Assembly (NCBI GenBank): GCA_046262275.1
Contig: JBHENA010000001.1
Location: 1 to 44,168, forward strand
Source of the DNA: Chthoniobacterales bacterium
GTDB taxonomy: Bacteria; Verrucomicrobiota; Verrucomicrobiia; Chthoniobacterales; UBA10450
Direction of reading: 5' to 3'
Length of the DNA: 44,168 nucleotides
The position numbers and the translations under genes are program-made. Positions 10,661-42,612 of this stretch are shown here, in pieces (the stretch's first letter is position 1; each line of letters starts with the position of its first letter). Below the pieces are notes generated by a model. It saw only the letters and a program-made list of their open reading frames with translations, was not told the DNA's origin and made no database searches.

Positions 10661-10671
10661 GAATTCGCCAG

Positions 10672-25210: not shown

Positions 25211-26857
25211 ATGATCGCCCTCCTCGAATTTTTTGCCGCGCGTCCGTCTCTGTTCTACCTCGTCGGGCTCGTGCCGCTTTTCGCCTCTGTTGCACTCGCT
25301 GCCGTGGGAGGATCGCTTTCGCGGGCAACACATCGGTTTGAATGTACGTTCCTGGCTGTCGCATCGGCCACCGTCGTGATCTGGCGCTGGCCGATGCTGC
25401 TGTGGCCGAATCCGTTGAATATTGACGAAGGCTACTTTACGGCTGGGGCCCTCAAAGCCACAGTTGATTTCGCGCCGTGGCGCGGATTCGACACTGCTAC
25501 GAGCGGACCGCTGAATGCGTATATTCTCGCGCTGCCGGCGTTGTTTGGCGCTCGAATCAGCTTGTTCTCCAGCCGCGTCATCGCGCTGTCCCTTGTGCTT
25601 GGGACGCTCGCGGCGTTTTACTACGCGGCGAAGTGGTCGTTCGGCGCGCGTACAGCACGACTCGCGCTCTTGCCGCCGCTGCTGTTTTTCGCGATTACCA
25701 CAGACCCGGAATTTGTCCACGCTTCCACCGAGCACCTCTCGATTTTCTTGAGCACAGTCGCTCTCGCGGCGGTCGCGTATCTCACTCACGCTGAAGCGAA
25801 CACGCGACGCATTGCGGCGTGCGTCGTCGGCGGACTGTGCCTTGGAAGCGCGGTCTTCGCCAAGCTTCAGGTAGCGCCAATCATACCCGCGATCTTTGCT
25901 GGTGCTGCCGTCGCTCTGTTCCTGGCGCGGAAAGCTCCCGGGGCGAAGCCGATTCGTGAAACCGGCGCTCTGCTGCTGTCGGCGAGCCTCGTCCCTGCGC
26001 TCATCGCGATCTCGCTCGCGGTGACCGGCGCATGGAACGATGCCGTGATCTCTTATCTCGGCTCGTCCTTGGCATTCATCGACCAAGGCAGGCCGGTCGG
26101 CTGGAGCTTCTTCTTCGACAACTCGCCATGGTACACCGCATTTCTCGTCGGTTCGCTCCTGGTCATAGTGGCAGGCGCTATGGCACTGATCGCCTACAGA
26201 CGTTTACCCGCCCGTTCTGTCGCGCTTGCATCAGGATCAGCCCTGCTCTTGCTCGCCGCCTTCGTGGCGATCTACCAACCTCACCGGCCCTGGCGGCATT
26301 ACTTGTTATTCTCGATCGTGCCAATCAGTTACTGCGTCGCGGCTGCCATCCGGCTGACGCGCGATGCGGGTTGGTGGAGCGGTCGCGAGCTGCGGCTGAC
26401 GCTGTTATCGATTGCGCTGTTCCTCGTTCCGACACTCATGATTGCGGGTGCGATCCCGCATCCCTTCTTACGCGCGCATCCGGTCGACGTTGCCCGGGCG
26501 CAGATAAAAGCCATTGCTCGTTACGCCTCTCCCGGCAGTCGCGTCGCGGTTTGGGGCTGGATGCCACATTACTACGTCGAGACAGAGACGATTCCGGCCA
26601 CACGAGAAGCGGAAACAATCCGTCAGATCGAGCCGGGGCCATACCGGGAATTCTTCCGGAGTCGCTTTTTGTCAGATCTGAAGGCGTCCATGCCGATCGT
26701 CTTCGTCGATGCCGTCGCGCCGGGCACATGGTATTTCAACAATCGGGCTACCCAGGGGCTCGAGACATTTCCCGAGCTTCACGCCTTCATCACAGCACAC
26801 TATGCCCTGAAGGAGGAGAGCGCTGGTGTCCGTATCTTCGTCCGCAACGCGCCGTGA
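25211..26857 (+). CDS. GT-C glycosyltransferase, ArnT/PMT-like (GT39/GT83-type), multi-pass membrane protein
   Basis: 548 aa with about 11 or more hydrophobic helices. The first-loop acidic motif is NIDEGYF, followed by TSGPLNAYILALPALFG. A soluble C-terminal domain is present. Confidence 0.7.
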   Translation: MIALLEFFAARPSLFYLVGLVPLFASVALAAVGGSLSRATHRFECTFLAVASATVVIWRWPMLLWPNPLNIDEGYFTAGALKATVDFAPWRGFDTATSGPLNAYILALPALFGARISLFSSRVIALSLVLGTLAAFYYAAKWSFGARTARLALLPPLLFFAITTDPEFVHASTEHLSIFLSTVALAAVAYLTHAEANTRRIAACVVGGLCLGSAVFAKLQVAPIIPAIFAGAAVALFLARKAPGAKPIRETGALLLSASLVPALIAISLAVTGAWNDAVISYLGSSLAFIDQGRPVGWSFFFDNSPWYTAFLVGSLLVIVAGAMALIAYRRLPARSVALASGSALLLLAAFVAIYQPHRPWRHYLLFSIVPISYCVAAAIRLTRDAGWWSGRELRLTLLSIALFLVPTLMIAGAIPHPFLRAHPVDVARAQIKAIARYASPGSRVAVWGWMPHYYVETETIPATREAETIRQIEPGPYREFFRSRFLSDLKASMPIVFVDAVAPGTWYFNNRATQGLETFPELHAFITAHYALKEESAGVRIFVRNAP

Positions 26858-26922
26858 TCTGTCGGCAGGTCGAGACCGCGCCGGCTTCGCTATTCAGTAT
26901 TGCTGGGGATGCGAGCAATCGT

Positions 26923-28083
26923 ATGATTGCGCGCAGCATGCCACCACAAGCGGCTACACCCGCGTCGGGCCCGAGTTCGTTCTGGAAGGAATCGCGCACC
27001 GACATCTGGCCGGTGCTTGTCGCGTTCGTCGCGTCGCGTGTGGTCATCGTGGGAGTGATGTTGCTGTCGCAGATGGTGATTCTGCGCGGCCGATTCTGGC
27101 GACCCGGCGGTCTGCTCGAAGTTCTGAGTAACTGGGACGGGGTCTACTATCTGCACATCGCCCGGCACGGTTACTTCTACATCCCCGAGATGTCGTCTAC
27201 GATCGTCTTCTTCCCGGTCTATCCGCTCGCCGTCCGCCTTTTCTCGTTTATCTTTCACGACTTCCGTGTCGCTGCCGTCGTGGTGGCGAACGTAGCGCTG
27301 CTGCTGGCGGCGCTGCTGCTCGAACGGCTGGTCAGGCAGGACTACGGCCGGCGGGTCAGCACGGCGGCGGTCGTGTTCCTCATGTTTAGCCCGGTGAGCT
27401 TTTTCTTCTCGAGCATGTACACCGAGTCGACCTTTCTCCTCTTTGCGGTAGCCGCTTTTTTTGCTGCAGTGAAGCGCCGGTGGCTGCTCGCATGCATCTG
27501 CGGATTGATCCTGTCGGCGACACGGAACATCGGATTTCTCATCGCCCTGCCGTTGTTCATCGAGCATCTGCGGCAAACGTGGAACCGCACGGCACCGATC
27601 TCGAGCCTGCTCCATCCACGCGTGTTGTTCATCGCGCTCGTTCCCGGCGGTCTCGGCTTGTATATGTTGTATGCGTACATCCGAGTGAATGACGCGCTAG
27701 CGTTCACGCGCTATCAGGCGCACTGGAATCGCAATCTCGTCTCGCCGCTGCATACGCTCACCCACTCCGGATGGCTGGAGCCGTTCTACTGGTGGCTCTT
27801 CAACGGAATTTTGGCGGTAGCTGCGATCCTGTGGGTGGCGGGCATCTTCTTCAGGGTGCGCGCGAGCTATCTGGTTTGGACAGCAATGCTGACGCTGAGC
27901 TACTTGTCCACGAACACGCTCGAAGCGCTGCCGCGATATCTCAGTATAGCGTTCCCATTGTTCATCGTTCTTGGGCTGATCAGCACGCGGTTATCAGCGG
28001 CTTACGAGTCTCTTCTGGCTGGATCGGTGGCGCTACTCACCATGTGCACAATCCTGTTCACGATGGGCTACTGGATGACCTGA
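26923..28083 (+). CDS. PIG-V/Gpi18-like GT-C mannosyltransferase-family membrane protein, paralogue A
   Basis: Motifs NWDGVYYLHIARHGY, FFPVYP, YTESTF and LEALPRYLSIAFPLF, in a multi-pass protein. The start is uncertain: ATG 26923 or 26938, or GTG 26854, which overlaps the previous stop. The upstream part of ORF 26032.. overlaps the preceding gene and I discard it. Confidence 0.8.
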   Translation: MIARSMPPQAATPASGPSSFWKESRTDIWPVLVAFVASRVVIVGVMLLSQMVILRGRFWRPGGLLEVLSNWDGVYYLHIARHGYFYIPEMSSTIVFFPVYPLAVRLFSFIFHDFRVAAVVVANVALLLAALLLERLVRQDYGRRVSTAAVVFLMFSPVSFFFSSMYTESTFLLFAVAAFFAAVKRRWLLACICGLILSATRNIGFLIALPLFIEHLRQTWNRTAPISSLLHPRVLFIALVPGGLGLYMLYAYIRVNDALAFTRYQAHWNRNLVSPLHTLTHSGWLEPFYWWLFNGILAVAAILWVAGIFFRVRASYLVWTAMLTLSYLSTNTLEALPRYLSIAFPLFIVLGLISTRLSAAYESLLAGSVALLTMCTILFTMGYWMT

Positions 28084-28685
28084 TGGTGTTGCATCCTGTA
28101 GACCACAAAGCTAAGCCATGCCACCGCAAGAGGTGCGCGGTCGCCGCCGCCTTTCTGTGCATGGCCGCGTGCCTCTCTGGCTGCGGCGAGGACCCTCCCG
28201 GCGATCCCCGGTCTTCTCTCACGCACGTGTACGTGTACGGCGAGACTGTGCGCTTCGGCCTGGGTGGCGATTCACATCGCTTTTGCACGACAGGCTGGAG
28301 TTTTAGCGAGCGCGGTTTCGTCTGGAACGACGGCCCGGCCGCTTCGCTGACGTTTTCGATCGCTCCCCCGCAGCCGCCGACAGATCTACTCCTCACGATA
28401 AAGCTGGGGCCGATGCTCGCGCCGCCGGATCTCGCTGTGCAGCCAGTTGATGTGTATGCGCATGGCGAGAAGGTGGCAAGTTGGCAAGTGACTGAAGAAG
28501 GCGTTTACACTGCCGAGATCCCGCAACACCTGACGATACGCGGCTATTTGAACATCGACCTGCACATGCCGAAAGCCATCGCGCCAGCGGAAGTGGGGCT
28601 CGGTTCAGATGCCCGACGACTTGCCATTCGTTGCTTCGAGTTGAAGCTCGATCTGGAGTCGAACGCGACCGCTCCCGCACCATAA
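28083..28685 (+). CDS. Lipoprotein, uncharacterised family, paralogue A
   Basis: The start ATG overlaps the PIG-V-A stop (TGATG). The signal peptide carries lipobox CLSGC. Shared domain blocks are GWSFSERGFVWNDG, QPVDVYAHGEKVASWQV and PKAIAPAEVGLGSDARRLAI. Confidence 0.7.
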   Translation: MVLHPVDHKAKPCHRKRCAVAAAFLCMAACLSGCGEDPPGDPRSSLTHVYVYGETVRFGLGGDSHRFCTTGWSFSERGFVWNDGPAASLTFSIAPPQPPTDLLLTIKLGPMLAPPDLAVQPVDVYAHGEKVASWQVTEEGVYTAEIPQHLTIRGYLNIDLHMPKAIAPAEVGLGSDARRLAIRCFELKLDLESNATAPAP

Positions 28686-28788
28686 GGCGAGCTGAGCCGC
28701 GCGGCGGCCGGACCGGAGGAGTCCGCAGCGTTTCGCTTGCGGGCGCCACTCGGTGTCCATTGCGGCGGTAGACGAGCTTCAGGTATCG

Positions 28789-29964
28789 CTACGGCTCCCC
28801 CATGTTCCCGAGAAACAGCTCCATCTCCACAAAGCAGGATGCGGCGGCGATGGATGCTACGACAACGCAGGCTAGCCTTGGCCTGTTCTTCAGCACATCG
28901 GCCATCATGATGTAGATGGGTAGGAGCACCGAGACATACCGTGTCCAGCCAAACGGACGATGCAGATAGACGATCAGTGAGAAATTGAACAAGGCGATAT
29001 AGAACATCTCCATGTAGCGCTTCTTGACCGCGCAATAGACGATCGCGATGATCGACAACCAGAAGGCGATCGTCTCAATGCGCCAGGAGAACGCCAGGTA
29101 TGTGAAGACCCACACCTTCGGGTTCGTTCCCGCCGCGACGTGCGTCTCAATAAGCTCCCGCACCCATCCAGCCCCGGCGGCGGACTGGCTCGTGCCCATC
29201 ACTGCCAGCGCGACGTGCCAGCTCGCAGCAACGAGAAGACCGCTCGAGGTAGCGAGCAATGGCCGCCAGTGAATTCGGCGGTCGCGGAGACAGTAGAACA
29301 CCTGCTCGACGAACAGTGCCGCGACCAGGAATGTTCCCATCATCCGCACCAACGCAGAGACTCCGGCAATAACGCTCCCCCACCCGATCCGCTCTTTCTG
29401 ACGCAGAACGAACGCAACCGCAGTTAGTGCTACGTAATAAGACTCTGAGTAGGCGGCGAAAAAGACGTTGTGCCCGGGATAAAAGAAGAGGAGGAACACT
29501 ACGAGCCATGGGGCTACTCCTTTCAGGCGGGCGTCATTCTTAACGTAGACAGTGAGCGCCCACGCTATCACCAAGTGGCTAATCAGGTTTAACACGACCG
29601 CGCTCTTTTCGAACGCATCTGGCGGACCGAACCGGAAGATCCCGGTCACTAGCCGCAGCGTGTATGGGTAAAGTGGCGGCCAGACGAAGAGGTCGAAGTG
29701 TTCGTAGAGCCGCCGGTAGATTGTGCCGTCCCAGCCTTGGTAGAGATAGGCAGGGAACCAGCGGAAGGGGCGCAGCAGTTCCGGAATCTTGCCTGCGCCA
29801 AACAGCGCGCAGAAAACGTATTGAATCGTATAGACGGCGGTGACCGTGACGACCCAGTCGGGCACCCGAAAAGGTGGTAGCCGCTCGCGCGTCTGATCTA
29901 ACAAAGCTTGTGCTTTCACATCGAAACGTCTGACCGCGTTCGCTTCACGCAGTCGACGCGCCAC
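28789..29964 (-). CDS. Divergent PIG-V-like GT-C membrane protein, paralogue E
   Basis: Motifs YQGWDGTIYRRLYEHF, WPPLYPY, AAYSESYY and GWTRYVSVLLPIY, in a multi-pass protein. It is the last gene of the minus-strand GT2 / STELLO-like / SDR operon. Confidence 0.7.
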   Translation of the reverse strand: MARRLREANAVRRFDVKAQALLDQTRERLPPFRVPDWVVTVTAVYTIQYVFCALFGAGKIPELLRPFRWFPAYLYQGWDGTIYRRLYEHFDLFVWPPLYPYTLRLVTGIFRFGPPDAFEKSAVVLNLISHLVIAWALTVYVKNDARLKGVAPWLVVFLLFFYPGHNVFFAAYSESYYVALTAVAFVLRQKERIGWGSVIAGVSALVRMMGTFLVAALFVEQVFYCLRDRRIHWRPLLATSSGLLVAASWHVALAVMGTSQSAAGAGWVRELIETHVAAGTNPKVWVFTYLAFSWRIETIAFWLSIIAIVYCAVKKRYMEMFYIALFNFSLIVYLHRPFGWTRYVSVLLPIYIMMADVLKNRPRLACVVVASIAAASCFVEMELFLGNMGEP

Positions 29965-30039
29965 TCATCGTCACCGATGTTCGGTGGTGCAAGCGCAAAC
30001 CGCACAAGCGTGCCTGCGCGGCGCTTTCCCCGACCGTTG

Positions 30040-31032
30040 CTACGCGCCGGCTACTCGGCTGCGGTAGTACTCGATCGCCCGTTCGATGCCCTCGCGGAAA
30101 TCGACCTTGTAGGTGAACCCGAGGCTCTTCTGCTTCGTCATATCGCCACCGCGCGCGAACACGCCTTCGGGTTTGTTTGACGTACCCACGACTTCCGGCG
30201 AGTAGCCGCACGCTTCAGCGGCCATTTTGGCGAATTGTTTGAAGCTGGTGAAGATGCCGGTCGACAAGTTGATGGCTTTCGCGTCGTCGATCTTTTCCAT
30301 CGTCTGCAACACGCCATCGATGCAGTCCTCGATATGGATGAAGTCGCGCATCTGATCGCCGGTGCCCCAGACGGTTAAGAGAGACTTGTCTTGGTTGCTT
30401 AAAGCCCGCTTACAAATGCTCGGGAAAGGATAAGTGTCGTCCTGGTCCTCGCCATAACCAGAGAACGGCCGATACACCACTGACTTCAACCCGTGCTTCT
30501 CGTATGCGAGCTGCGCGAGATATTCGTGCGTCAGCTTCGCCCAGCCGTAAGACATGTCCGGCATACCGATGTCATCGGTAAACTCAATCATCTCTTCTTT
30601 CAGCAGGATGTAGTCATCCTTCCGCTGATACCGGATCGGGTAAGCAGCGCTCGAACTGAAACAGATCGTTCGCTTCGGCTCCGCCCGGACCGCCCAAGCC
30701 CAGAATTCAGAGTCGATCGACAGATCCTCGGCGACCGCCAGCGGATTCTGTTCGATGACGAGACGGCCACCGACGACTGCCGCCAAATGGAAGGCAATAT
30801 CGAAATCCTTGTCGGCAACACGTTTGAAATAGTGCCGGCAATCTTCGCCGTGGAAGTGAAAGTTTTTGTAATCGCGCGGCTCGTAGAGCGGCCACTTGCT
30901 ATCCGGAGAAATCCCACCGGTGAGCGGCTCGATATTGTCCACGCAATGGACCTCGTCGCGCGCGTCGAGCAGACGCTTCACAAGGTGTCGGCCAACGAAA
31001 CCGGCGCCTCCCGTGACGAGTACTTTACGCAT
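30040..31032 (-). CDS. NAD-dependent sugar-nucleotide epimerase/dehydratase (extended SDR)
   Basis: MRKVLVTGGAGFVGRHL (the GxxGxxG motif), SSSAAY and the catalytic YGWAKL (YxxxK). It has an 8-nt overlap with the upstream gene. Confidence 0.85.
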   Translation of the reverse strand: MRKVLVTGGAGFVGRHLVKRLLDARDEVHCVDNIEPLTGGISPDSKWPLYEPRDYKNFHFHGEDCRHYFKRVADKDFDIAFHLAAVVGGRLVIEQNPLAVAEDLSIDSEFWAWAVRAEPKRTICFSSSAAYPIRYQRKDDYILLKEEMIEFTDDIGMPDMSYGWAKLTHEYLAQLAYEKHGLKSVVYRPFSGYGEDQDDTYPFPSICKRALSNQDKSLLTVWGTGDQMRDFIHIEDCIDGVLQTMEKIDDAKAINLSTGIFTSFKQFAKMAAEACGYSPEVVGTSNKPEGVFARGGDMTKQKSLGFTYKVDFREGIERAIEYYRSRVAGA

Positions 31033-31945
31033 TTGTGAAATGTTTCTGATAGAGCCGGAAGGCCTCTACTGAGCGCTCCGGCAGGTAGTTCAGAATCTTG
31101 TCGGGATCTTCGACGAGTTCCGCCACGATCTTGTGGTTGTGTTCATACCCGAGGTACTCGGCCTTCATGTCCTTGGTAAGATCATGCACGTTGCGCTGCT
31201 GATACACTGATGCTTTTCCGAACACGACCTTGCGGCCTTTCGCCTGCACGTAGAATGCTGCCCAGATGTCATCCATCCGGCCGACGTGCGGATAAAGGAA
31301 GTAATCTTTCAAGACGCTTCCGGCCAAAAAGGTATTCTGCGAGTTGAAGGGCGACATCTTGTTCGCCGCAATCGGGAAACAACTCTCGTCGAACTTGCAT
31401 TCGGGTGCGTGCTCCATCCGGCAGAACGCGTCGATGTCCGGATCGCCATCCCAGAAATCCGCCTGAACGTCAGGACGAATGGTCTTCTTGCTCTTCCGCG
31501 AGTAGTCGCGTTTCGACAGCATCGTGAGCGGAAACCCACGGTGCCACAGTTTCCCGTGGTTCGTCGCGCCGACAGGATCGAACACGGGAAGATCGGTCTC
31601 GTAATAGTTGGTCTCTACGTCTTTTCCGATCACGAGATCTTTTCCCCAGCCTTCGTAAGGAATGTTGTCGTCATCCACTGCGGCGACGATGTCCGCCCCC
31701 ATGTCATGCGCCCAGAGCAGGCCGAAGTTCCGCCGCTGGATGCAATTCCAGCCAATCGCATCGGAAAGCTCCTTGTCGTAATCCTCCTGCATTTCCGGGG
31801 TAACGTAGATTCCGCGGTCGAGCTGATAATCCGGGGGCGTCTTCTTATCGCCGATCACGACGAGATCCCAGTCCTCGAAGGTCTGGAAGCGCGCCATCGC
31901 GTCGGTGATGGGATTGATAGTGGTAGTGACGATGACTTTTTTCAT
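31025..31945 (-). CDS. STELLO/DUF288-like glycosyltransferase
   Basis: KKVIVTTTINPITDAMARF...DWDLVVIGDKKTPPDY...RRNFGLLWAHDMGADIVAAVDDDNIP follows the layout I recall for the DUF288 (STELLO) family. That layout is IV.S...PT, a K.W..VV.GD.KTP block, then a DDD acidic motif. The coding call is strong; the family call is moderate. Confidence 0.6.
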   Translation of the reverse strand: MKKVIVTTTINPITDAMARFQTFEDWDLVVIGDKKTPPDYQLDRGIYVTPEMQEDYDKELSDAIGWNCIQRRNFGLLWAHDMGADIVAAVDDDNIPYEGWGKDLVIGKDVETNYYETDLPVFDPVGATNHGKLWHRGFPLTMLSKRDYSRKSKKTIRPDVQADFWDGDPDIDAFCRMEHAPECKFDESCFPIAANKMSPFNSQNTFLAGSVLKDYFLYPHVGRMDDIWAAFYVQAKGRKVVFGKASVYQQRNVHDLTKDMKAEYLGYEHNHKIVAELVEDPDKILNYLPERSVEAFRLYQKHFTNA

Positions 31946-36107: not shown

Positions 36108-36803
36108 ATGGCAGATTTTGTCGAGGCCGATCTCCGGAAGCTGAGCGTCACGGCAGGGTTAGCCGTTACTGTTTGCGCAGTTGCAATCCCGCTCATGCTC
36201 AGCGGATGTGGCAAAGGGAATAGCAACACCGCCCAACGTGCGGAGCCGACGCCGGACTCGCCCGTCTCACGCCAATCTGCGGCCTCTGCGCAGACTCCCG
36301 CTGGTGCTTCGCCCTCGGCTGCACAGCAGCCGCAAGGCGGTCCGCAAACACGTGCAACAAGCGGTCAGCGGGTTGAATACGACACTTTGATCGAGTTCAC
36401 CGAGGGGGGGAACTCTGACGCGCTGAAGGTCTCCGGCTGGAGCATTGCGGAAGCGGGATTTACGTGGACGGAAGGAACAGCGGCGATGCTGTCGCTGCGC
36501 GTGCCGCCCGCCGACAGCCCAGTGACCTTAAAAATGAAAGCTGCGGGAAGCATCAAGGAACCCGAAGTGCCGTTTCAGCCAGTTGAGATTGACATCAACG
36601 ACGAGAAGATCGCGGACCTGCAGGTAGGAAACACTGCGGAGTTCAGTGTCCCCGTTCCCGAGCACCTAACGAAAAGCGGCGGCGTCCTGACGATCGCTCT
36701 CCGGACACCGAAAGCGGCTTCGCCGAAGGATCTCGGGCTGAACGAAGATGCGCGCGTGCTGGGGATTCGGGTGTTCAACATCGCACTCTCGACGGTTCAG
36801 TAG
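36108..36803 (+). CDS. Lipoprotein, uncharacterised family, paralogue C (with a long low-complexity linker)
   Basis: Lipobox MLSGC. A ~50-aa Pro/Ser/Ala/Gln/Thr-rich linker follows, then GWSIAEAGFTWTEG, QPVEIDINDEKIADLQV and PKAASPKDLGLNEDARVLGI. I trimmed the start to ATG 36108. Confidence 0.7.
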   Translation: MADFVEADLRKLSVTAGLAVTVCAVAIPLMLSGCGKGNSNTAQRAEPTPDSPVSRQSAASAQTPAGASPSAAQQPQGGPQTRATSGQRVEYDTLIEFTEGGNSDALKVSGWSIAEAGFTWTEGTAAMLSLRVPPADSPVTLKMKAAGSIKEPEVPFQPVEIDINDEKIADLQVGNTAEFSVPVPEHLTKSGGVLTIALRTPKAASPKDLGLNEDARVLGIRVFNIALSTVQ

Positions 36804-36957: not shown

Positions 36958-37530
36958 ATGGATCGGAGCCGGAAAAAGACTGGCGATGAACCTCGACTGA
37001 CTACGGCGGGCGCGCGGTTGTTCGCCGCCACAAGCGTCGTGTTGGTTCTTTCGGCCTGCGATCGCACGACCTTCGCCACGCGGCCGGAAAGCTCCCGAGG
37101 CGCAGATTACGTCTACGGCACCGTCATCGGTTTTGGTACAGCGGACGGGTTCAAGGTCTCGGGCTGGAGCCGACCCGAACAGCAATCCACTTGGAGTGAG
37201 GGCAACAAGGCCGTGCTGGCGTTAAACTTGCCGCCGAGCGAAAACGGACGGGTCGATCTCGTCGCGACCATGTCCGCCTACACTCACCCGCCTGCGCTGA
37301 CGTCGCAGCCGGTGGAAGTCTACGCGAACGAACAGAAAATTGCTGACTGGGTGGTGAGCGATCTTGCAGAATTTAGCGTCGGCCTCCCGGACACTGTCGC
37401 AAGAAAAGGCGGGACTGTGCTTCTCTCACTTCAGCTTCCAAAGGCAGCTTCCCCAAAAAGCTTTGGTGACGGCGAAGACTCGCGCATCCTTGGGATCTGC
37501 ATGCGCAATTTCCGGCTGGTGCGTCGCTAG
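36958..37530 (+). CDS. Lipoprotein, uncharacterised family, paralogue C2 (no GT-C immediately upstream)
   Basis: Lipobox VLSAC. Blocks GWSRPEQQSTWSEG, QPVEVYANEQKIADWVV and PKAASPKSFGDGEDSRILGI. Confidence 0.75.
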   Translation: MDRSRKKTGDEPRLTTAGARLFAATSVVLVLSACDRTTFATRPESSRGADYVYGTVIGFGTADGFKVSGWSRPEQQSTWSEGNKAVLALNLPPSENGRVDLVATMSAYTHPPALTSQPVEVYANEQKIADWVVSDLAEFSVGLPDTVARKGGTVLLSLQLPKAASPKSFGDGEDSRILGICMRNFRLVRR

Positions 37531-37562
37531 CGGCCGGGCAGGCGGACACGGCACAGCACGCA

Positions 37563-38765
37563 ATGAAGAAGCCTCGGGTCGCGTTCATCGTGCAGCGTTG
37601 CGGCGTCGAAGTTAATGGCGGCGCTGAGGCGCACTGTCTGCAGATCGCGCAGCGGATGGCGCGCCACTGGGACACTGAAGTCCTGACCACCTGCGCATTG
37701 GATTACATGACGTGGGAGAACTCGTATCCCGCCGGCCTCGAAGAAATCGGAGGGACGATAGTGCGGCGGTTTCCGGTGGATCAACCGCGGGACGTCACGC
37801 ACTTCGACGAGCTTTCCGCCAGGCTCCGCGGACGGGGGGTAGCGGCAACACAGTCCGAGCAGGAAGAATGGATGCAGGCGCAAGGGCCAATCAGCTCGGG
37901 TTTGCTGGACTATTTAGGCGCACATCGCGGTGAATACGACGCCTTCATTTTCTTCGGCTATCTTTACGCGACGACGTATTTCGGTTTGCCCCTCGTTCAG
38001 GAGAAGGCATTCCTTGCGCCGCTCGCGCACGACGAATGGACGATTTACCTCAGCATGTGGGACAGCTTCTTCGCTCGTCCGCGCGCGCTGATTTTCAACA
38101 CTTCCTTCGAGAAGGAATTCCTCCGGCGTCGCCTCCCCTCGCTCTCTCTCGAAGGGCCAGTGGTCGCCGTTGGAATCGAGCCGCCCGCTGACTTTGCGCC
38201 GGAACTATTTCGAGCGCGCTACGGACTTGATGATCCGTTTCTGCTCTACGTCGGGCGAATCGACGAATCGAAAGGCTGCCGTTGGCTGATCGAAAACTTT
38301 GTTCGCGCGCGGAACGCCGGGCGGATTCAGCACAAGCTGGTGCTTGCTGGGACTGAAGTGATGCCGATTCCGTTCCACGACGACGTCATTCACCTCGGGT
38401 TCATCGATGAGGCGCAGAAATGGAGTGCGATGGCCGCATGTGATTGGCTCGTAATGCCTTCGCCGCACGAGAGCTTGTCGATGGTTCTGCTGGAAGCTTG
38501 GGGCGCCGGGCGACCGGCATTAGTGACTGGCGATGCAGAGGTTCTCGTCGGGCAGTGTCGGCGTGCGAACGCGGGGCTTTGGTATCGAAACTCGGAGGAA
38601 TTTGAGGCTATTCTGCGTACGATTGACGGCTCGACCAAGCAGCGGCTCGGCGCGCGGGGGCGGCAGTTTGTCGCGACGCATTATTCGTGGGAGCGCGTCG
38701 TGAACAACTACGCGGATCTATTCGAGGAGCAGGAAGCTATCCCCGTCTATAATCGCCGCGGCTGA
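37563..38765 (+). CDS. GT4-family glycosyltransferase
   Basis: PRVAFIVQRCGVEVNGGAEAHCLQIAQRMARHWDTEVLTT is paralogous to the N-terminal module of the 21629 gene. Also LLYVGRIDESKG and the EX7E-type block SPHESLSMVLLEAWGAGRPALV. Confidence 0.85.
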   Translation: MKKPRVAFIVQRCGVEVNGGAEAHCLQIAQRMARHWDTEVLTTCALDYMTWENSYPAGLEEIGGTIVRRFPVDQPRDVTHFDELSARLRGRGVAATQSEQEEWMQAQGPISSGLLDYLGAHRGEYDAFIFFGYLYATTYFGLPLVQEKAFLAPLAHDEWTIYLSMWDSFFARPRALIFNTSFEKEFLRRRLPSLSLEGPVVAVGIEPPADFAPELFRARYGLDDPFLLYVGRIDESKGCRWLIENFVRARNAGRIQHKLVLAGTEVMPIPFHDDVIHLGFIDEAQKWSAMAACDWLVMPSPHESLSMVLLEAWGAGRPALVTGDAEVLVGQCRRANAGLWYRNSEEFEAILRTIDGSTKQRLGARGRQFVATHYSWERVVNNYADLFEEQEAIPVYNRRG

Positions 38766-39504
38766 GGTGTTTCTCCAGCCAGATGTAGAGGCAGATAAAC
38801 AGGTAGCGGCTGCCCATTTCCTTGATCTTCAGTTTCGGCGCACCGGTCACTCGATTGCGGTAGGTATTCGGCATGCTGGTCCAGCGATAGCCACGGACGA
38901 TCGCCTTCAGCGGTAGCTCGACGGTGAGATTGAAATGCGGCGAGATGAGCGGTCGGCAGCCGTCGATGGTGGTGCGACGATAGGCTTTAAACGCGTTCGT
39001 TAGATCGTTATGGCGAATGCCGAACAACAGTTGGAGGAACAGGTTTGCCATGCGATTCAGCAGGAGCTTGAAGCGAGGGTAATCGATGACACCGCCCCCT
39101 TTCATGAAGCGGCTGCCGAAGACGCAATCGTAGCCTTCGTTCAGGATTCGCCAGAAACGCACGACGTCGCGCGGATCGTCCGACTCGTCAGCCATCATGA
39201 TGACGACGGCATCGCCAGTCATGTGGTTCAGACCCCAAATGATTGCGCGCCCGAAACCGTGCGCATCGGTGTTTTGCGTCGGAGCAAGTGTCGGAACGCG
39301 GTCACGAAGCTCTTCTATGATGGCCCAGGTGCGATCGCTGCTTCCGTCATCCACAACGACAATCTCATGCGGCACTTTCTGCAGCCGCAGTTCGGTGTGG
39401 AGATGTTCTACCGTTGACGCGATGCAGCCTTCTTCATCGCGTGCCGGTATCACGATGGACAACAGCGAAAGCGGCGGAGCGCTCCGATCGGGCCGCTGCT
39501 TCAT
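38737..39504 (-). CDS. GT2 polyprenyl-phosphate glycosyltransferase (Dpm1/ArnC/GtrB-like) with a C-terminal TM segment
   Basis: LSIVIPARDEE, IVVVDDGSSD, MMADESDDP, CVFGSRF and the C-terminal hydrophobic stretch YLFICLYIWL. I trimmed the start to ATG 39504, which overlaps the upstream stop (ATGA). The 3' end overlaps the convergent GT4 gene by 29 nt. Confidence 0.85.
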   Translation of the reverse strand: MKQRPDRSAPPLSLLSIVIPARDEEGCIASTVEHLHTELRLQKVPHEIVVVDDGSSDRTWAIIEELRDRVPTLAPTQNTDAHGFGRAIIWGLNHMTGDAVVIMMADESDDPRDVVRFWRILNEGYDCVFGSRFMKGGGVIDYPRFKLLLNRMANLFLQLLFGIRHNDLTNAFKAYRRTTIDGCRPLISPHFNLTVELPLKAIVRGYRWTSMPNTYRNRVTGAPKLKIKEMGSRYLFICLYIWLEKHLSRGDYRRG

Positions 39505-40571
39505 AGCGGAGAGGAAAGATCGAGCCACTCCGGATGCTGCTCCGCATGCACAGCGATCTCGTCGAGGATAGCGTCAAGCGACATCGTCGGCCGCCAATCC
39601 CACTCTGCTTCGGCGCGTCGCGAATCCATCACGACCCACGGGAGATCGAAAGGTCTTGGCGCCGGATCAGCGCCGATGCTGTGCGCTCCGAAACGCGCCG
39701 CGCACCAGTCGCTCAGCTGCGCGAGTGACATCGCGTTTGTAGCGCGGCCGCCGAAGTTCAAAATCCGTGGCTTTGCCGCGAACGGCTCCCGCATTTGCCT
39801 TAGCAACAGCGGAACGAGGTCCCGCGGATGCAGCGCGTCGCGCACCTGGAATCCTCGGCCGCCGAAGCCGATGTATTTCAACGGGCGTCGACGCAGGTAA
39901 GCGTTGATCCAGAAGGCGAAAATACCCTGGTCAGCGCGACCAAACTGACCCGCGCCGGCCAGCACCCCGCAGCGGTTAACCCAAACTGGAAAATCGAAGG
40001 TTTCGCCGTACTCGAGCGCGAGAGCCTCAGACGCGAGTTTGGTGCTGCCGTAGAGCGAAACCGGCGCTGCGGTGGAGAATTCTTCCCGGATGCCGTGAGA
40101 TGAAATGCCCGGAGGCAGACTGCTGTTAGTTACCGGCTGAAAAGCGCCGTGCAGTTCTTCAACATGCAATGTCGCAAGGGGCGCAATGGCGTAAACGCGG
40201 CTCGTACTGAGCAGAATGCAACCGGCACGATCACGCTTTGCGAGCTCGAGAATATTGACGGTCCCATAGAGATTGTGCTCGATGAGCTGCCTACTACTCG
40301 TGAGGCCGTCGACGCCCGCGAGCACGCTCGGATTCGCCGCGGCATCAACGATCCAATCGACGTGCGGTAGCGTTTCCATGTCACTCGCCGCTCGGATGTC
40401 GGCGTGGAAAAGCTTCACGCCGCGTTTCCGCAGCGGCTCCCGCGTGAGTTCGCTACCGGGCCGGATAAAGTTGTCGAACCCTACAATCTCGATGGTCGAA
40501 TCAGCGTCCAGAAGCGCGTGTGCGACCGTGCTTCCGACAAAACCGCAAATACCCGAAACAAGCAGCTTCAC
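39501..40571 (-). CDS. NAD-dependent sugar-nucleotide epimerase (extended SDR, CDP-paratose/tyvelose 2-epimerase-like)
   Basis: KLLVSGICGFVGS, STSRVY and YGSTKL (YxxxK). The block ADQGIFAFWINAYLRRRPLKYIGFGGRGFQVRDALHPRDL resembles the RfbE-type epimerase block as I recall it. Start is GTG 40571 (MKLLVSG) or TTG 40580. Confidence 0.8.
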   Translation of the reverse strand: MKLLVSGICGFVGSTVAHALLDADSTIEIVGFDNFIRPGSELTREPLRKRGVKLFHADIRAASDMETLPHVDWIVDAAANPSVLAGVDGLTSSRQLIEHNLYGTVNILELAKRDRAGCILLSTSRVYAIAPLATLHVEELHGAFQPVTNSSLPPGISSHGIREEFSTAAPVSLYGSTKLASEALALEYGETFDFPVWVNRCGVLAGAGQFGRADQGIFAFWINAYLRRRPLKYIGFGGRGFQVRDALHPRDLVPLLLRQMREPFAAKPRILNFGGRATNAMSLAQLSDWCAARFGAHSIGADPAPRPFDLPWVVMDSRRAEAEWDWRPTMSLDAILDEIAVHAEQHPEWLDLSSPL

Positions 40572-40774
40572 GCGAAACAAAGAGCAGGGATAGAAGAAGG
40601 GAGGTTCTGCACCGCTCCGATCTATATGACCACGCTAAACTTTCCACCCATTTCGCTGCTGCCCGTCGCCTTGACAGAATTCGCCAGCGCCAGCAGCGTC
40701 ACCGCTGATCCAAATGGCCGGGGTCAACGTGCTCGCGCATCGGCTAGCGATCGGACGGCACACCTGCCACGATT

Positions 40775-42019
40775 ATGGAGATCCAATATCTATCTCAACC
40801 TGACGCCGAACAACGGCCGCAGCCGGGCAGCACTCGGGCTCGTTTCGACGCGTTTCTTCGCTCCTGGATGTTTCGCGACGTGCTGATCCCGTTCATCACC
40901 GCCCGCGCGGTGCTTACATTGATCGGTTGGCTTGCGCTGCAGTATTTTCATAATCTTCCCGCCAATCCCGGCAGCTGGGAGCTGAACCCCGCCGGCCAAA
41001 TCACGACCGTCTCTCACCTCTCGATGACGAGCCATCCATTGCTGAACATGTATTCGCGGTGGGATGCAGGCTGGTATCATTCCATCGCGAAGCAGGGATA
41101 CAGCTTCAAGCCGGGTCGCCAATCGAATACGGCTTTCTTCCCGCTCTACCCAGCGCTGATGCGGGCCGTCCACGTGTTCATTCCATCGGATACCGATTCG
41201 TCTTGGTTCCTCGCCGGAGTTATCGCGTCTAACTGCGCCTTCCTCGTCGCGCTCTGCTATCTCCTGCTGCTTTTGCGGATGGACTTCGATCAGGAAACGT
41301 CAGCCCGGGCCGTACTCTATCTGCTGGTCTTCCCGACCGCATTTTACTTCTTCGCGGTGTATGGCGAATCGGTCTCGCTCGCCACCACGGTCGCGGCATT
41401 TTATTACGCGCGGAAAAACAACTGGTGGCTCGCTGGCGCGTTTGCCGGAGCTGCGACACTTACGCGTTCGCCCGGGGTTCTCCTCGGCGCGCCCCTTTTG
41501 GCCGAATACCTTGGGCAACGCGAGTTCCGGTGGCGCAGCATCCGCGCTGATATTCTTTCTCTCGGGCTTATCCCCGCGTGTCTCATCGCGCACATGCTTT
41601 TCCTGCGCTGGAGCGTGGGCAACGTGACCGCCATCCAAGACGCGCAGGCTGCGTGGGGCAGTCAATGGGGCAGGTTCTCCGCGCCTTGGGCCCCGCTGTT
41701 CCGCTTGCGTCCTCATCCGTTTACGTATTTCGATTTCATAAACGTCGGGTTCGCTGGCGTGATGTTAGTGCTGGTCGTCCTCGCCGCCGCGCGACTTCGA
41801 CTGAGCTACGGCGTGTATGCGGTCACCGGTTTCTGGTTCATCACTTCATGGGGCACGTATGAATCAATGCCGCGATACGTGATCGTGCTATTCCCGGCGT
41901 TCCTCATCCTCGCGAAATGGGGCCACAATCGCGCATTCGATCGCGCGTACGTCGCCGTCGCCAGCGCGTTGGCCGCGTTGTTCATGACGCGTTTCACACT
42001 TTGGCTTTGGGTCGCGTGA
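40775..42019 (+). CDS. PIG-V/Gpi18-like GT-C membrane protein, paralogue D
   Basis: Motifs RWDAGWYHSIAKQGY, FFPLYP, YGESVS and YESMPRYVIVLFPAF, in a multi-pass protein. Confidence 0.8.
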   Translation: MEIQYLSQPDAEQRPQPGSTRARFDAFLRSWMFRDVLIPFITARAVLTLIGWLALQYFHNLPANPGSWELNPAGQITTVSHLSMTSHPLLNMYSRWDAGWYHSIAKQGYSFKPGRQSNTAFFPLYPALMRAVHVFIPSDTDSSWFLAGVIASNCAFLVALCYLLLLLRMDFDQETSARAVLYLLVFPTAFYFFAVYGESVSLATTVAAFYYARKNNWWLAGAFAGAATLTRSPGVLLGAPLLAEYLGQREFRWRSIRADILSLGLIPACLIAHMLFLRWSVGNVTAIQDAQAAWGSQWGRFSAPWAPLFRLRPHPFTYFDFINVGFAGVMLVLVVLAAARLRLSYGVYAVTGFWFITSWGTYESMPRYVIVLFPAFLILAKWGHNRAFDRAYVAVASALAALFMTRFTLWLWVA

Positions 42020-42034
42020 TTCGTCCGTAAACGC

Positions 42035-42601
42035 GTGATCGTTAAATTGCGAAAACCAATCTGGTGCAGCGCTGCTGCATATTGTGCTGCGTTCATGTTG
42101 ATCGGCTGTGACGGGCCGCACAACGCTGACGACTATGCGCTGGACACTGTCGTGAACTTCGGCGCGCAAGGCGACGCAGAGCGCTTTCGTGGGGAGGGGT
42201 GGAGTCACGCCGAGCCGGCATTCACCTGGGCTCTCGGGCCGCGCGCTAGATTGCATATGAACGTCCGCTGGAACAGCCGTCCGCTCGGGCTGCGCATGCG
42301 GCTGGCAGGTATGCATCACTTACCGGACCTGCCGTTCCAAACGGTCGAGGTCGCAGCGAATGACATTGTTGTTGCGACATGGCAGGTCGCGAAAACCGGC
42401 GATTTTACCGCCGTCATTCCGCCGGATGTGCTGGCAAAAAGACGCGTCCTTTACCTGGAGCTCAGGTTGGCAAACGCGACTTCGCCGAAAGCTCTCGGCT
42501 TGACCGCGGATTCGCGGCCCCTCGGCGTCTCTTGTTTCGAAATGCAGCTCACTAAAGCGGTCGCGCCGCAGGATATGTGGCCGCAGCTCGCCGCGCGCTG
42601 A
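42035..42601 (+). CDS. Lipoprotein, uncharacterised family, paralogue D
   Basis: GTG start 15 nt after the PIG-V-D stop. Lipobox MLIGC. Blocks GWSHAEPAFTWALG, QTVEVAANDIVVATWQV and ATSPKALGLTADSRPLGV. Confidence 0.75.
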   Translation: MIVKLRKPIWCSAAAYCAAFMLIGCDGPHNADDYALDTVVNFGAQGDAERFRGEGWSHAEPAFTWALGPRARLHMNVRWNSRPLGLRMRLAGMHHLPDLPFQTVEVAANDIVVATWQVAKTGDFTAVIPPDVLAKRRVLYLELRLANATSPKALGLTADSRPLGVSCFEMQLTKAVAPQDMWPQLAAR

Positions 42602-42612
42602 TTGCGCCGAGA

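Follow-up and report, generated by a model that had tools for sequence, protein, structure and literature searches.

Five PIG-V-like glycosyltransferases alternating with small lipoproteins in a surface-sugar gene cluster of a soil Verrucomicrobium

Gene content and the GT-C proteins

The window, a stretch of 44,168 nucleotides from a soil Verrucomicrobium of the Chthoniobacterales, contains a surface-sugar gene cluster where genes for five membrane sugar-transferases and five small lipoproteins alternate. Its open reading frames (ORFs) comprised five paralogous PIG-V-like GT-C proteins (A to E), one more probable GT-C and a paralogous set of five lipoproteins; among them lie genes for two Dpm1/GtrB-like GT2s, three SDRs and two GT4s. 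The coordinates and strands of the initial annotation matched for every ORF, and its five PIG-V-like GT-Cs, four of them followed by a lipoprotein gene, were borne out by the ORFs and by BLASTP homology. The glycan cluster begins upstream of the region described there (25211 to 42601), with a double GT4 gene (21629 to 23971, plus strand; 780 amino acids, matching Pfam Glycos_transf_1 twice) and a GDP-mannose 3,5-epimerase (GME) gene (24074 to 25090, minus strand), whose product matched GME structures in a phmmer search of the PDB (E=4e-92). The ORFs scanned in the window included neither a flippase, Wzx, Wzy or Wzz nor an exporter or initiating phosphoglycosyltransferase, in agreement with the earlier view that this is not a Wzx/Wzy, ABC-transporter or synthase locus. 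Scanning of the cluster ORFs gave no further multi-TM ORF.

GT-Cs A (26923 to 28083), B (32809 to 34146), C (34834 to 36033) and D (40775 to 42019) are encoded on the plus strand, and E (28789 to 29964) on the minus strand. Searches with the Pfam model PF04188 (Mannosyl_trans2; gathering score, 22.4) gave 42.6 bits for A, 27.8 for D and 22.8 for C, and B, with 19.8 bits, fell just under the threshold; D matched PMT_2 as well (30.2 bits). E gave no PF04188 match, its one Pfam match being to GT87 at E=0.51, and it matched NCBIfam AZOBR_p60025 weakly (37.8 bits). In BLASTP comparisons all five proved homologous, with identities of 47% for A/B (5e-117), 41% for A/C, 32% for A/D (4e-30), and 27% for both D/E (9e-9) and A/E (3e-7). 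The motifs WDxxxY..IAxxGY, FFPxYP, Y(T/S/G)ES and (A/M)xPRY, which had been ascribed to all five proteins, are present in A to D, C having Glu at the acidic position of its WD motif, whereas E keeps them only in part (WPPLYP, YSES and WTRY). The AF2 model of A (pLDDT, 93.2) matched STT3, AglB, ArnT, PglB, ALG9, Emb and PimE in Foldseek, so that, together with the Pfam scores, the assignment of these membrane proteins to PIG-V-like GT-C enzymes was upheld. All five are minimal proteins that have no soluble periplasmic domain.

The 548-amino-acid protein encoded at 25211 to 26857 (plus strand) had been called ArnT/PMT-like. It gave no match in Pfam, NCBIfam or PDB sequences and so belongs to an unannotated family, but it is a probable GT-C, given its roughly 10 predicted TM segments followed by a C-terminal soluble part, the D72-E73 pair, which follows TM1 and is invariant, and its alignment by hhalign with the PIG-V-like profile (86%, E=5e-6). 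It has no lipoprotein partner.

Predicted donor-sugar enzymes and the conserved core

On the minus strand, E closes a GT2–GT75–SDR–GT-C operon, likewise with no lipoprotein partner, and it is 58% identical to its orthologue in a related locus (L006). The first SDR of the window, an epimerase/dehydratase (30040 to 31032, minus strand; Pfam Epimerase, 4e-32), gave only generic NDP-sugar epimerase matches in the PDB. The gene at 31025 to 31945 (minus strand) was initially labelled a STELLO-like glycosyltransferase, a label that we replaced, since its product fits better as a GT75-like NDP-pyranose/furanose mutase homologue (MtdL, PDB 7XPR; E=9e-14). It keeps 10 of the 12 key residues whose roles are described for MtdL (PMC9937993), namely DDD, R159, D195, S228, Q229, R257, D260, R289 and H292, with I in place of D87 and Q in place of H287. 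In syntenic loci, a close MtdL orthologue (E=2e-99) lies in an SDR–RGP–GT2 cassette that faces the GT-C/lipoprotein genes. The presence of this homologue, with the GME gene just upstream of the GT-C genes, suggests a furanose donor, which the loss of D87 and H287 makes uncertain. GME makes GDP-L-galactose and GDP-L-gulose.

Both Dpm1-like GT2s were confirmed as polyprenyl-phosphate-sugar synthase-like. The first (31942 to 32664, minus strand; Pfam GT2) had DPMS 5MLZ as its best PDB match (1.4e-5), with weak NCBIfam matches to AglJ, dolichyl-P-hexose transferase, PgfS and ArnC. The second (38737 to 39528, minus strand; Pfam GT2, 2.5e-22) matched DPMS 5MLZ (2.7e-21), ArnC and GtrB in the PDB, and is adjacent to the second SDR (39501 to 40580, minus strand), which is CDP-tyvelose-2-epimerase-like by sequence matches.

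The double GT4 is 57 to 59% identical to the double GT4 encoded directly 5' of a lipoprotein gene in four other loci (L109, L111, L127 and L129), and it is the enzyme conserved at the core of the locus, where it is likely to make the backbone glycan. The single GT4 (37563 to 38765, plus strand; identified by Pfam), also a core enzyme, shares 57 to 74% identity with its orthologues from L006 and metagenome loci. The order lipoprotein, then GT4 is kept in L093, L109, L111, L120 and L129, and in the window the core-locus slot just 5' of GT4 is occupied by lipoprotein C2.

The lipoproteins and their association with GT-C genes

The lipoproteins, all encoded on the plus strand, are A (28083 to 28685), B (34265 to 34837), C (36108 to 36803), C2 (36958 to 37530) and D (42035 to 42601). 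Each has a lipobox (LSGC, VAGC, LSGC, LSAC and LIGC, the first in A and the last in D). They are homologous to one another, with 27 to 42% identity and E values of 1e-18 to 1e-33 in BLASTP, by which C and C2 were also recognized; A, C2 and D match the family HMM. No Pfam family was matched by any of them at E<=1. The AF2 model of lipoprotein B (pLDDT, 87.6; core, >95) matched CBM6/35/36/22 and BcsB in Foldseek, and the best 50 of the 73 matches (E <= 0.001) were all CBMs, BcsB or other β-sandwiches. The lipoproteins thus look like an unannotated β-sandwich family with a predicted CBM6/35/36/BcsB-like fold, the conserved part of which carries invariant Trp, Glu, Asp and Arg residues. They are also distantly linked to DUF7024 and CBM60, as residues 882 to 1026 of one homologue (P0094) score to the lipoprotein HMM, DUF7024 and CBM60, the latter two above their gathering scores.

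The domain is widespread (∼9,600 cluster representatives), and in other bacteria it is fused to envelope enzymes in 2 to 8 copies. Periplasmic sulfatase-type transferases carry 2 to 4 copies at the C terminus, and P0094 has the domain fused to a double GT4. P0050 is a PMT_2 GT-C with four copies; its gene lies in a Wzt-type O-antigen cluster, with that of a GtrB-like GT2 next in line, and in the same cluster the two proteins encoded on either side of an MBOAT gene bear two to three copies. No description of a stand-alone lipidated form was found in the literature searched.

In the window, the stop codon of GT-C A overlaps the start of lipoprotein A (TGATG), that of lipoprotein B overlaps the start of GT-C C (ATGA), and GT-C C is followed by two lipoprotein genes (C and C2). 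An array of homologous pairs at these BLASTP E values lies far beyond chance. The adjacency is kept in five related Chthoniobacterales loci with the same alternating arrangement (L006, L009, L088, L089 and L090); when the window is counted with them, a lipoprotein gene lies directly 3' of 15 of the 21 complete PIG-V-like genes. The pairs appear to be inherited as units (Mantel r=0.67 to 0.76, p ∼2e-4; 7 of 7 clear orthologue pairs concordant), although the Mantel signal may merely mirror conserved synteny among orthologous loci. An independent trio in the Firmicute Gorillibacterium consists of a PIG-V-like gene, a TM-anchored domain protein and a GtrB-like GT2.

In a survey of loci of both families, as had been proposed, the pairing was seen in just 2 of the 79 PIG-V-seeded genome loci and in 6 to 8 of the 57 lipoprotein-seeded metagenome loci. 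Most often the lipoprotein gene came directly 3' of the gene for a double GT4, a cytoplasmic enzyme, or had MBOAT/AlgX, AT3 or methyltransferase genes as neighbours; in Verrucomicrobial loci it also lay near LPG_synthase_TM genes. The lipoprotein family is therefore not dedicated to GT-Cs, and since such contexts are its commonest, tight linkage is no proof of a two-subunit enzyme or complex. The two-component GT-C/lipoprotein module proposed in the initial annotation stands insofar as the unit is conserved and co-inherited and the lipoprotein domain is, elsewhere, fused to a GT-C.

A candidate role for the locus

We give an even chance to the explanation that the locus encodes an expanded periplasmic glycosylation system of GtrB/GT-C type with multiple GT-Cs, its acceptor-binding modules being supplied as separate lipoproteins. 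Its closest kin would be three-component periplasmic glycosylation systems: GtrA/GtrB/Gtr-GT-C, CsbB/GtcA/YfhO, ArnC/ArnE-F/ArnT and the pentofuranose systems of Kelly et al. 2024 (GT136, PMC11127046). There, as would be the case here, a Dpm1/GtrB-like GT2 makes a polyprenyl-phosphate sugar that a GT-C adds outside the cytoplasm, a variety of donors arises through auxiliary epimerases or mutases, and a backbone built by Leloir glycosyltransferases is decorated after polymerization. Unlike them, the window has five or six GT-Cs instead of one, of a PIG-V-like family, and no flippase gene. In CAZy, GT76 is not known outside eukaryotes. In contrast to GT136, where the CBM is a C-terminal domain, the CBM-like module is encoded separately as a lipoprotein, and a GDP-sugar, acted on by a GT75 mutase and a GT2, would replace PRPP as the source of the putative furanose donor.

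Mycobacterial arabinan/LAM assembly, in which GT4 enzymes and the Dpm1-like synthase Ppm1 take part, is similar in its multiple GT-Cs, lipid-linked (furanose) donors and acceptor-binding CBMs. The GT136 GT-C has a CBM that binds the unmodified O-polysaccharide, as those of EmbC and AftD bind acceptor (PMC11127046), and mycobacterial GT-Cs that have no CBM pair with lipoproteins (LpqZ with AftA, FecB with AftB) for which a CBM-like function was proposed (PMC12802301). LpqZ and FecB, however, have substrate-binding-protein folds and are genetically unlinked to their GT-Cs, whereas the window lipoproteins are CBM-like, directly downstream and iterated. The GT-C families also differ (GT53/85/89 versus PIG-V-like), and the present organism is a diderm. 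DUF7024, CBM60–CBM36–CBM6/35 modules and BcsB domains have a predicted fold in common with the window lipoproteins, and modules of this kind are found in tandem at the C termini of envelope enzymes; the window lipoproteins differ in standing alone and being lipidated.

Eukaryotic GPI mannosyltransferases (PIG-V/Gpi18 with Pga1, PIG-M/PIG-X) share with the window PF04188, the GT-C fold, a Dpm1-like donor synthase, GT4 enzymes and a small second protein beside the GT-C. Unlike them, the window proteins score only ∼20 to 40 bits to the family model, a GPI acceptor is not indicated, and the donor is probably not mannose alone. One-to-one gene order at four GT-Cs, with translational coupling, and catalytic proteins of the PIG-V family would fit lipoproteins acting as PIG-X/Pbn1- or Pga1-type structural subunits that stabilize the GT-C without binding glycan. 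To this we give the slimmest chance, as neither PIG-X, Pbn1 nor Pga1 was among the best 50 of the 73 Foldseek matches, the domain is widespread with non-GT-C partners, and most PIG-V-like genes in the 79 loci have no such neighbour. The analogy drawn initially thus has no homology behind it. The alternative named in the initial annotation, that the lipoproteins are themselves acceptors, O-glycosylated by the GT-Cs, is highly improbable. PMT mannosylates mycobacterial lipoproteins, D also scores to PMT_2, and lipoprotein C has an S/T/P/A/Q-rich linker of 55 residues, 13 of them Ser/Thr. Streptococcal GtrB/GT-C systems glycosylate Ser/Thr-rich disordered regions, and glycosylation of disordered regions in membrane-associated proteins by a GT-C is reported (PMC12041528). 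However, the other four linkers span only 9 to 18 residues with 0 to 5 Ser/Thr, the conserved part is a folded β-sandwich, many family members reside in loci with no detected GT-C, and tandem copies on the enzymes themselves would be unexpected for a substrate.

It is possible, though unlikely, that the lipoproteins are glycan-binding lectins acting independently of the GT-Cs to anchor, retain, chaperone or hand over the polymer, finished or still growing, at the membrane or the cell surface, a role comparable to that of the lectin Wzi. Each would then have diversified for the product, not the substrate, of its neighbouring GT-C and would not be an enzyme subunit. Such a role would agree with the lipoprotein's presence in the conserved core (double GT4, lipoprotein, methyltransferase/GT4) even without a PIG-V-like GT-C, with tandem lipoprotein copies beside MBOAT/AlgX and AT3 genes, and with the P0094 fusion, which suggests that the backbone polymer itself is recognized; a CBM-like fold suits a stand-alone lectin and an enzyme accessory equally. 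Yet the fused domain is always on enzymes (sulfatase-type transferases, GT-C, MBOAT-flanking proteins and double GT4), as is typical of substrate-targeting modules, while translational coupling and pairwise co-inheritance point to joint function with the GT-Cs, and the Firmicute trio places the domain protein between a GT-C and a GT2.

In the multi-GT-C glycosylation system that we favour, GME, the GT75 mutase-like protein and the SDRs would make activated sugars in the cytoplasm, one of them probably a GDP-L-hexofuranose such as L-Galf, and the two GT2s would charge polyprenyl phosphate with sugars. The lipid-linked donors would cross the membrane by a flippase encoded elsewhere, and the five PIG-V-like GT-Cs and the probable sixth would add the sugars to an envelope glycan whose backbone is probably the product of the conserved double GT4 and GT4. 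The lipoprotein following four of the GT-Cs would be a membrane-tethered CBM-like module that most likely binds the acceptor glycan and presents it to its neighbour GT-C; "acceptor-binding module" is preferred to "stabilizing subunit" because the lipoprotein is a CBM-like β-sandwich. Counting against this scheme, E and the 548-amino-acid protein have no lipoprotein, C has two, and the window has no flippase. On this reading, the lipoproteins would serve in trans the function that EmbC, AftD and GT136 ORF12 obtain in cis from their fused CBMs, a role like that proposed for LpqZ (AftA) and FecB (AftB), and the pairs would most likely be a split form of enzymes that elsewhere bear such a module as a fused domain. 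As part of this same explanation, the region would be the variable portion of a surface-glycan locus of the Chthoniobacterales.

Organization and variability of the glycan cluster

The glycan cluster starts with a gene for a 780-aa double GT4 protein (21629 to 23971, plus strand), which lay outside the coordinates of the initial annotation, followed by a gene for a GDP-mannose 3,5-epimerase (GME; 24074 to 25090, minus strand; E = 4e-92 against solved GMEs). Its other boundary is the NAD synthase gene (42613 to 44046, minus strand), and the gene for LipoD (42035 to 42601, plus strand) is its last member; a 290-aa ORF antisense to the NAD synthase gene (42577 to 43449, plus strand) is in all likelihood spurious. 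Genes in the upstream half of the window code for two PATR-repeat (autotransporter-passenger-like) proteins (3390 to 5492, plus strand, and 15495 to 18044, minus strand), an outer-membrane barrel of the CarboxypepD_reg/TonB-dependent-receptor-like type (11424 to 14591, plus strand), a papain-family peptidase (6396 to 7250, plus strand), and a MacB/FtsX-type permease (3 to 1367, minus strand), the latter 20 kb off and outside the glycan cluster. None of these genes appears to be part of the cluster.

In other loci, the double GT4 was the partner of the lipoprotein family with the highest degree of conservation. In three related loci (L109, L111, and L129), the gene for a double GT4 (57 to 59% identical to that of the window) is followed after some 20 to 55 bp by the start of a lipoprotein gene, and this in turn by a methyltransferase gene and/or an orthologue of the window GT4 (37563 to 38765, plus strand); in a fourth (L127), the double GT4 and lipoprotein genes are divergent. 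From these gene orders, the conserved core consists of double GT4, lipoprotein, and GT4. In the window, approximately 13 kb of GT-C/lipoprotein modules plus a donor cassette lie between the double GT4 and the LipoC2–GT4 gene pair. Within this region, the genes for GT2_1, a GT75-like protein, SDR1 (30040 to 31032, minus strand), and the PIG-V-like protein E form one minus-strand string, and those for the PIG-V-like proteins B, C, and D either adjoin the GT2 genes or diverge from them. Pfam scans agreed with the initial annotation on the SDR and GT4 genes.

The genes for GT2_2 (38737 to 39528, minus strand) and SDR2 (39501 to 40580, minus strand) are present in some relatives (L006 and L111) and absent from L093. 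The latter (positions 1 to 5363), whose NAD synthase is 88% identical to that of the window, runs straight from GT4 to NAD synthase, without GT2_2, SDR2, D, or LipoD. For its part, L006 (1 to 21086) retains GT4, GT2_2, and SDR2 at 71 to 79% identity, together with a donor cassette (an SDR, an orthologue of the mutase MtdL, and a GT2) at 24 to 28% identity and different GT-C/lipoprotein modules. Such gain and loss of modules between close relatives indicates that the region is a hypervariable, modular surface-glycan locus.

Among the window ORFs scanned, no Wzx/Wzy/Wzz, Wzm/Wzt, ABC exporter, processive synthase, or initiating phosphoglycosyltransferase was found, and the absence of flippase, polymerase, exporter, and initiating transferase reported by the initial annotation was borne out. 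Concerning a flippase of the GtrA, MATE, or ArnE/F type, no further multi-TM ORF was present between 21.6 and 42.6 kb and no flippase family appeared in Pfam scans of the window; it may be encoded elsewhere.

PIG-V-like proteins and neighboring lipoproteins

The five PIG-V-like proteins A (26923 to 28083), B (32809 to 34146), C (34834 to 36033), and D (40775 to 42019), all on the plus strand, and E (28789 to 29964, minus strand) are encoded by ORFs located where the initial annotation had placed them, and its family call held for some of them. Thus, A (42.6 bits), D (27.8 bits), and C (22.8 bits) passed the gathering score (22.4) of Pfam family PF04188, Mannosyl_trans2, but B fell slightly below it (19.8 bits), and E gave no PF04188 match, only a GT87 trace (E = 0.51). 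All five were linked by BLASTP (A/B, 47%; A/C, 41%; A/D, 32%; D/E, 27% at 9e-9; A/E, 3e-7). The motif blocks described for them were visible in the PIG-V-like alignment but degenerate in E. Neither the five-member PIG-V alignment nor that of the five lipoproteins contained a conserved stretch of 7 to 10 columns, and narrower alignments were used to seed the searches for related loci.

An AlphaFold2 model of A, built with 44 homologues, was all-helical, with a pLDDT of 93.2 and no soluble domain, and its top Foldseek matches were GT-Cs only (STT3, AglB, ArnT, PglB, ALG9/12, EmbA/B/C, PimE, AftA, and GPI-MT-I). The acidic residue of the WD motif, D72, was almost invariant in the 44 homologues, with Glu in C; A shares this residue and the GT-C fold with PIG-V/Gpi18 (PF04188; CAZy GT76). 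An O-antigen ligase or Wzy identity of the membrane proteins, named by the initial annotation as evidence against its call, was rejected, as no such matches were obtained and the modeled fold is clearly GT-C. PIG-V/Gpi18 transfers α1,6-mannose from dolichyl-P-mannose to the first mannose of GPI; for the window proteins, judging by the locus context (GME and the GT75 mutase-like protein), the donors may be sugars other than mannose. A genome scan retrieved at least 551 bacterial PIG-V-like relatives, from Actinomycetota, Chloroflexota, Acidobacteriota, Cyanobacteria, Eremiobacterota, and others, and a GT2_2-like gene lay within 10 kb in 18 of 79 PIG-V-seeded loci. We know of no bacterial PIG-V-like GT-C that has been characterized.

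The 548-aa membrane protein (25211 to 26857, plus strand), labeled ArnT/PMT-like in the initial annotation, had no match in Pfam, NCBIfam, or PDB sequences, even by profile search, and nothing curated supported that label. A crude Kyte–Doolittle scan, the source of all TM counts here, gave it around 10 hydrophobic segments, and D72-E73, which follows TM1, is invariant. The sole link of the protein to GT-Cs was an hhalign match between its profile and the PIG-V-like profile over the TM3 to TM6 region (86% probability, E = 5e-6), which makes it a probable GT-C.

The five lipoproteins, LipoA (28083 to 28685), LipoB (34265 to 34837), LipoC (36108 to 36803), LipoC2 (36958 to 37530), and LipoD, all on the plus strand, are paralogues (27 to 42% identity; E values of 1e-18 to 1e-33). 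By motif ([LVI][ASTVI][GAS]C), the N-terminal signal peptide of each closes with a lipobox (LSGC, VAGC, LSGC, LSAC, and LIGC) with its Cys at position 25 to 34. None matched a Pfam or NCBIfam family, nor any CBM or DUF7024 model at E ≤ 1. In the LipoB model (41 sequences), the core is a β-sandwich whose pLDDT exceeds 95 and whose best Foldseek matches were CBM6 (CBM6E), CBM35, CBM36, CBM22, and the carbohydrate-binding domains of BcsB, a similarity at the fold level only (E ∼1e-4; TMq, 0.36 to 0.47). In LipoC alone, the lipidated Cys is joined to the β-sandwich by a 55-residue low-complexity linker, rich in Pro, Ala, and Gln and with 13 Ser/Thr, which may serve as a spacer or carry O-glycosylation.

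An exhaustive search with an HMM of the lipoprotein domain retrieved 9,601 cluster representatives at E ≤ 1e-3 (4,174 at E ≤ 1e-10), with one to eight copies per protein, and no Pfam family is dedicated to it. DUF7024 was weakly matched by 4 of 41 family members and by a Gorillibacterium homologue. One of the at least six copies in P0094, a double GT4 fused to the domain, scored above both the DUF7024 and CBM60 thresholds, thus providing a sequence bridge to recognized CBMs. Many proteins of 800 to 1,100 aa combine four to five N-terminal TM segments, a Sulfatase (LtaS/Ept-type) domain, and two to four C-terminal copies. Another fusion, P0050, is a GT-C (PMT_2, 26.3 bits; DDE motif after TM1) with four copies, encoded in a Wzt-type O-antigen cluster immediately before a GtrB-like GT2. 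It was the only one of the best 148 domain proteins to match the window GT-Cs in phmmer/hmmsearch comparisons, weakly (E = 0.001) and alongside PMT_2; no PIG-V fusion was found in that set. In the cluster that encodes P0050 (L091, 8001 to 19231), three different envelope proteins bear two to four C-terminal copies: this PMT_2 GT-C and two Pfam-less proteins (two to three copies) on either side of an MBOAT gene. Since all three carry it, the domain seems to have a general role in targeting enzymes that modify polysaccharides in the periplasm. Together, the fusions to envelope enzymes and the bridge to CBMs identify the lipoproteins as the stand-alone, lipid-anchored form of a widespread glycan-enzyme accessory module, a form of which no description was found in the literature searched.

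Regarding the adjacency of GT-C and lipoprotein genes, the alternation recurs on five other Chthoniobacterales contigs (L006, L009, L088, L089, and L090), often with two-domain lipoproteins. In the window and these five loci, 15 of the 21 complete PIG-V-like genes are directly followed by a lipoprotein gene, in line with the initial annotation. Overlapping stop and start codons occur in A/LipoA (TGATG) and LipoB/C (ATGA). The identity matrices of the GT-Cs and their downstream lipoproteins were correlated (Mantel r = 0.67 to 0.76; p ∼2e-4), a signal that may be partly explained by synteny alone, and for the GT-Cs with a clear orthologue (≥69% identity) the best match of the partner was the orthologue's partner in all seven cases. 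Both results argue that the pair was inherited as a unit. In a Firmicute, Gorillibacterium sp. (L065, 9986 to 12870), a PIG-V-like GT-C, a 197-aa TM-anchored domain protein, and a GtrB-like GT2 are encoded in a row next to dTDP-rhamnose genes; with this trio, the pairing recurs independently beyond the diderm bacteria.

The wider neighborhood survey spoke against an exclusive partnership. The domain was found near a PIG-V-like gene in only 2 of the 79 PIG-V-seeded loci, and the lipoprotein was accordingly rejected as an obligate, universal partner of PIG-V-like enzymes. A PIG-V-like neighbor was present in only 6 to 8 of 57 lipoprotein-seeded metagenome loci, many of them on short contigs. In seven loci (L001 to L005, L007, and L008), lipoproteins, often two or three in tandem, lie beside MBOAT plus AlgX, Acyl_transf_3, LPG_synthase_TM, and methyltransferase genes. 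In L001 to L005 (∼9400 to 11600), the two or three tandem paralogues are located 3' of LPG_synthase_TM, AlgX, and MBOAT, an AlgI/AlgX-like O-acetylation set, and no GT-C was detected in these five loci.

Putative sugar donors

Both Dpm1-like GT2s were, as initially annotated, closest to polyprenyl-phosphate sugar synthases, at the family level only. GT2_2 matched the Pyrococcus DPMS (PDB 5MLZ; 2.7e-21), ArnC, and GtrB, and GT2_1 (31942 to 32664, minus strand) matched DPMS 5MLZ (1.4e-5), with weak NCBIfam matches to AglJ, PgfS, and ArnC.

The protein encoded at 31025 to 31945 (minus strand) had been described as a STELLO-like glycosyltransferase. This label had to be abandoned: its Pfam STELLO score was 14.6 bits, versus E = 9e-14 against MtdL (PDB 7XPR), a GT75 NDP-pyranose mutase like Hyg20 and plant UAM, so a true STELLO identity was rejected. 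It keeps 10 of 12 key MtdL residues (the DDD metal motif, the nucleophile Arg159 in RGFP, Asp195, Ser228/Gln229, Arg257, Asp260, Arg289, and His292), with Ile in place of D87 and Gln in place of the metal ligand H287 (residue roles from PMC9937993). Its counterpart in L006 is a clear MtdL orthologue (2e-99), and in syntenic loci a much closer MtdL orthologue belongs to a conserved SDR–RGP–GT2 cassette divergent from the GT-C/lipoprotein genes.

The GME and this GT75 homologue are thus encoded in one cluster, next to a Dpm1-like GT2 gene. In the A201A antibiotic pathway, GDP-L-galactofuranose is made by this pair of activities, the epimerase and the mutase. MtdL converts GDP-L-galactopyranose to GDP-L-galactofuranose, the mutase step of that pathway (PMC9937993). 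The three window genes hint at a lipid-linked L-furanose donor, and from the adjoining GME and GT75-like genes the simplest inference is a GDP-L-hexofuranose donor chain. As pieced together from sequence similarity, the whole chain would run from GDP-Man through GDP-L-Gal and GDP-L-hexofuranose to a polyprenyl-P-furanose made by GT2_1, followed by periplasmic transfer by a GT-C. SDR1, SDR2, and GT2_2 imply at least one further donor.

Comparison with known systems and possible roles of the lipoproteins

Three-component periplasmic glycosylation systems encode a polyprenyl-P-sugar synthase and a GT-C together, as does the window, whereas their third component, the flippase, has no window gene. 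Such systems add α-pentofuranose side chains after polymerization, and the C-terminal CBM of the GT136 GT-C binds the unmodified O-polysaccharide (Kelly et al., 2024; PMC11127046); the same paper cites EmbC and AftD as enzymes whose CBMs bind the acceptor. In those enzymes the CBM is in the same protein, whereas in the window minimal PIG-V-like GT-Cs are accompanied by lipid-anchored CBM-like modules with genes of their own. The GT-Cs AftA and AftB lack a CBM and bind the lipoproteins LpqZ and FecB, for which a CBM-like role was proposed (PMC12802301, 2025). However, LpqZ and FecB, which bind their GT-C, have a periplasmic substrate-binding-protein fold, whereas a CBM-like β-sandwich is predicted for the window lipoproteins; the likeness, drawn by analogy, is functional, not homologous. 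Unlike Wzx/Wzy, ABC-transporter, and synthase loci, the scanned window ORFs lack the diagnostic genes of those pathways and an initiating transferase. GtrB/GT-C systems, CBMs on GT-Cs, and lipoprotein helpers of GT-Cs are thus already published. Literature searches (AZOBR_p60025, DUF7024, and GT-C plus PIG-V bacteria with lipoprotein) returned nothing, and no description was found of a PIG-V-like family acting in such a system, of an iterated GT-C/CBM-lipoprotein architecture, or of a GME, GT75, and Dpm1-like route to lipid-linked furanose.

By analogy with these systems, the window may encode GtrB/GT-C-type periplasmic glycosylation with the lipoproteins as separate CBM-like acceptor modules, a reading to which we give an even chance. 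A synthase of polyprenyl-P-sugars would act together with a flippase and a GT-C, and a minimal PIG-V-like GT-C would be paired with its lipid-anchored module, the pair having been duplicated and diversified. In the main rival reading, the lipoproteins would serve the locus polymer as glycan lectins, anchors, or chaperones and work independently of the GT-Cs; their occurrence in core loci where no GT-C was detected fits this view, which we consider possible but doubtful, the inheritance of pairs as a unit being what the acceptor-module reading would account for.

A role of the lipoproteins as acceptors glycosylated by the GT-Cs rests mainly on the Ser/Thr/Pro-rich linker of LipoC and is improbable, as the other four linkers are short and Ser/Thr-poor. 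The initial annotation had likened the lipoproteins to PIG-X/Pga1; a role as GT-C stabilizers of that type found no homology support, and we hold it to be improbable as well. The acceptor-module reading can be extended to an envelope glycan or lipoglycan built or decorated in the periplasm by split GT-C holoenzymes, in which each minimal PIG-V-like catalytic subunit would strictly depend for acceptor specificity on a dedicated lipidated CBM subunit, with donors including a polyprenyl-P L-hexofuranose made via GME, the GT75 mutase (GDP-L-Galf), and the Dpm1-like GT2 (lipid-P-L-Galf). In this full form it is rather unlikely; if true, GT-C/CBM-lipoprotein enzymes would form a new class, bacterial PIG-V homologues would gain their first function, and one would be assigned to a domain family of thousands without a Pfam model.

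The combination of GME, GT75, and a Dpm1-like GT2 points to a candidate pathway for L-furanose donors linked to lipid. Should the lipoproteins act in trans as modules that bind the acceptor, the locus would offer a genetically separable model for acceptor choice by GT-Cs without soluble domains, a question newly opened by the mycobacterial LpqZ–AftA and FecB–AftB work, and a working annotation would become available for a large family of "hypothetical lipoproteins" whose domain, with some 9,600 cluster representatives (E ≤ 1e-3) and no Pfam family of its own, is in many cases fused to envelope-modifying enzymes.
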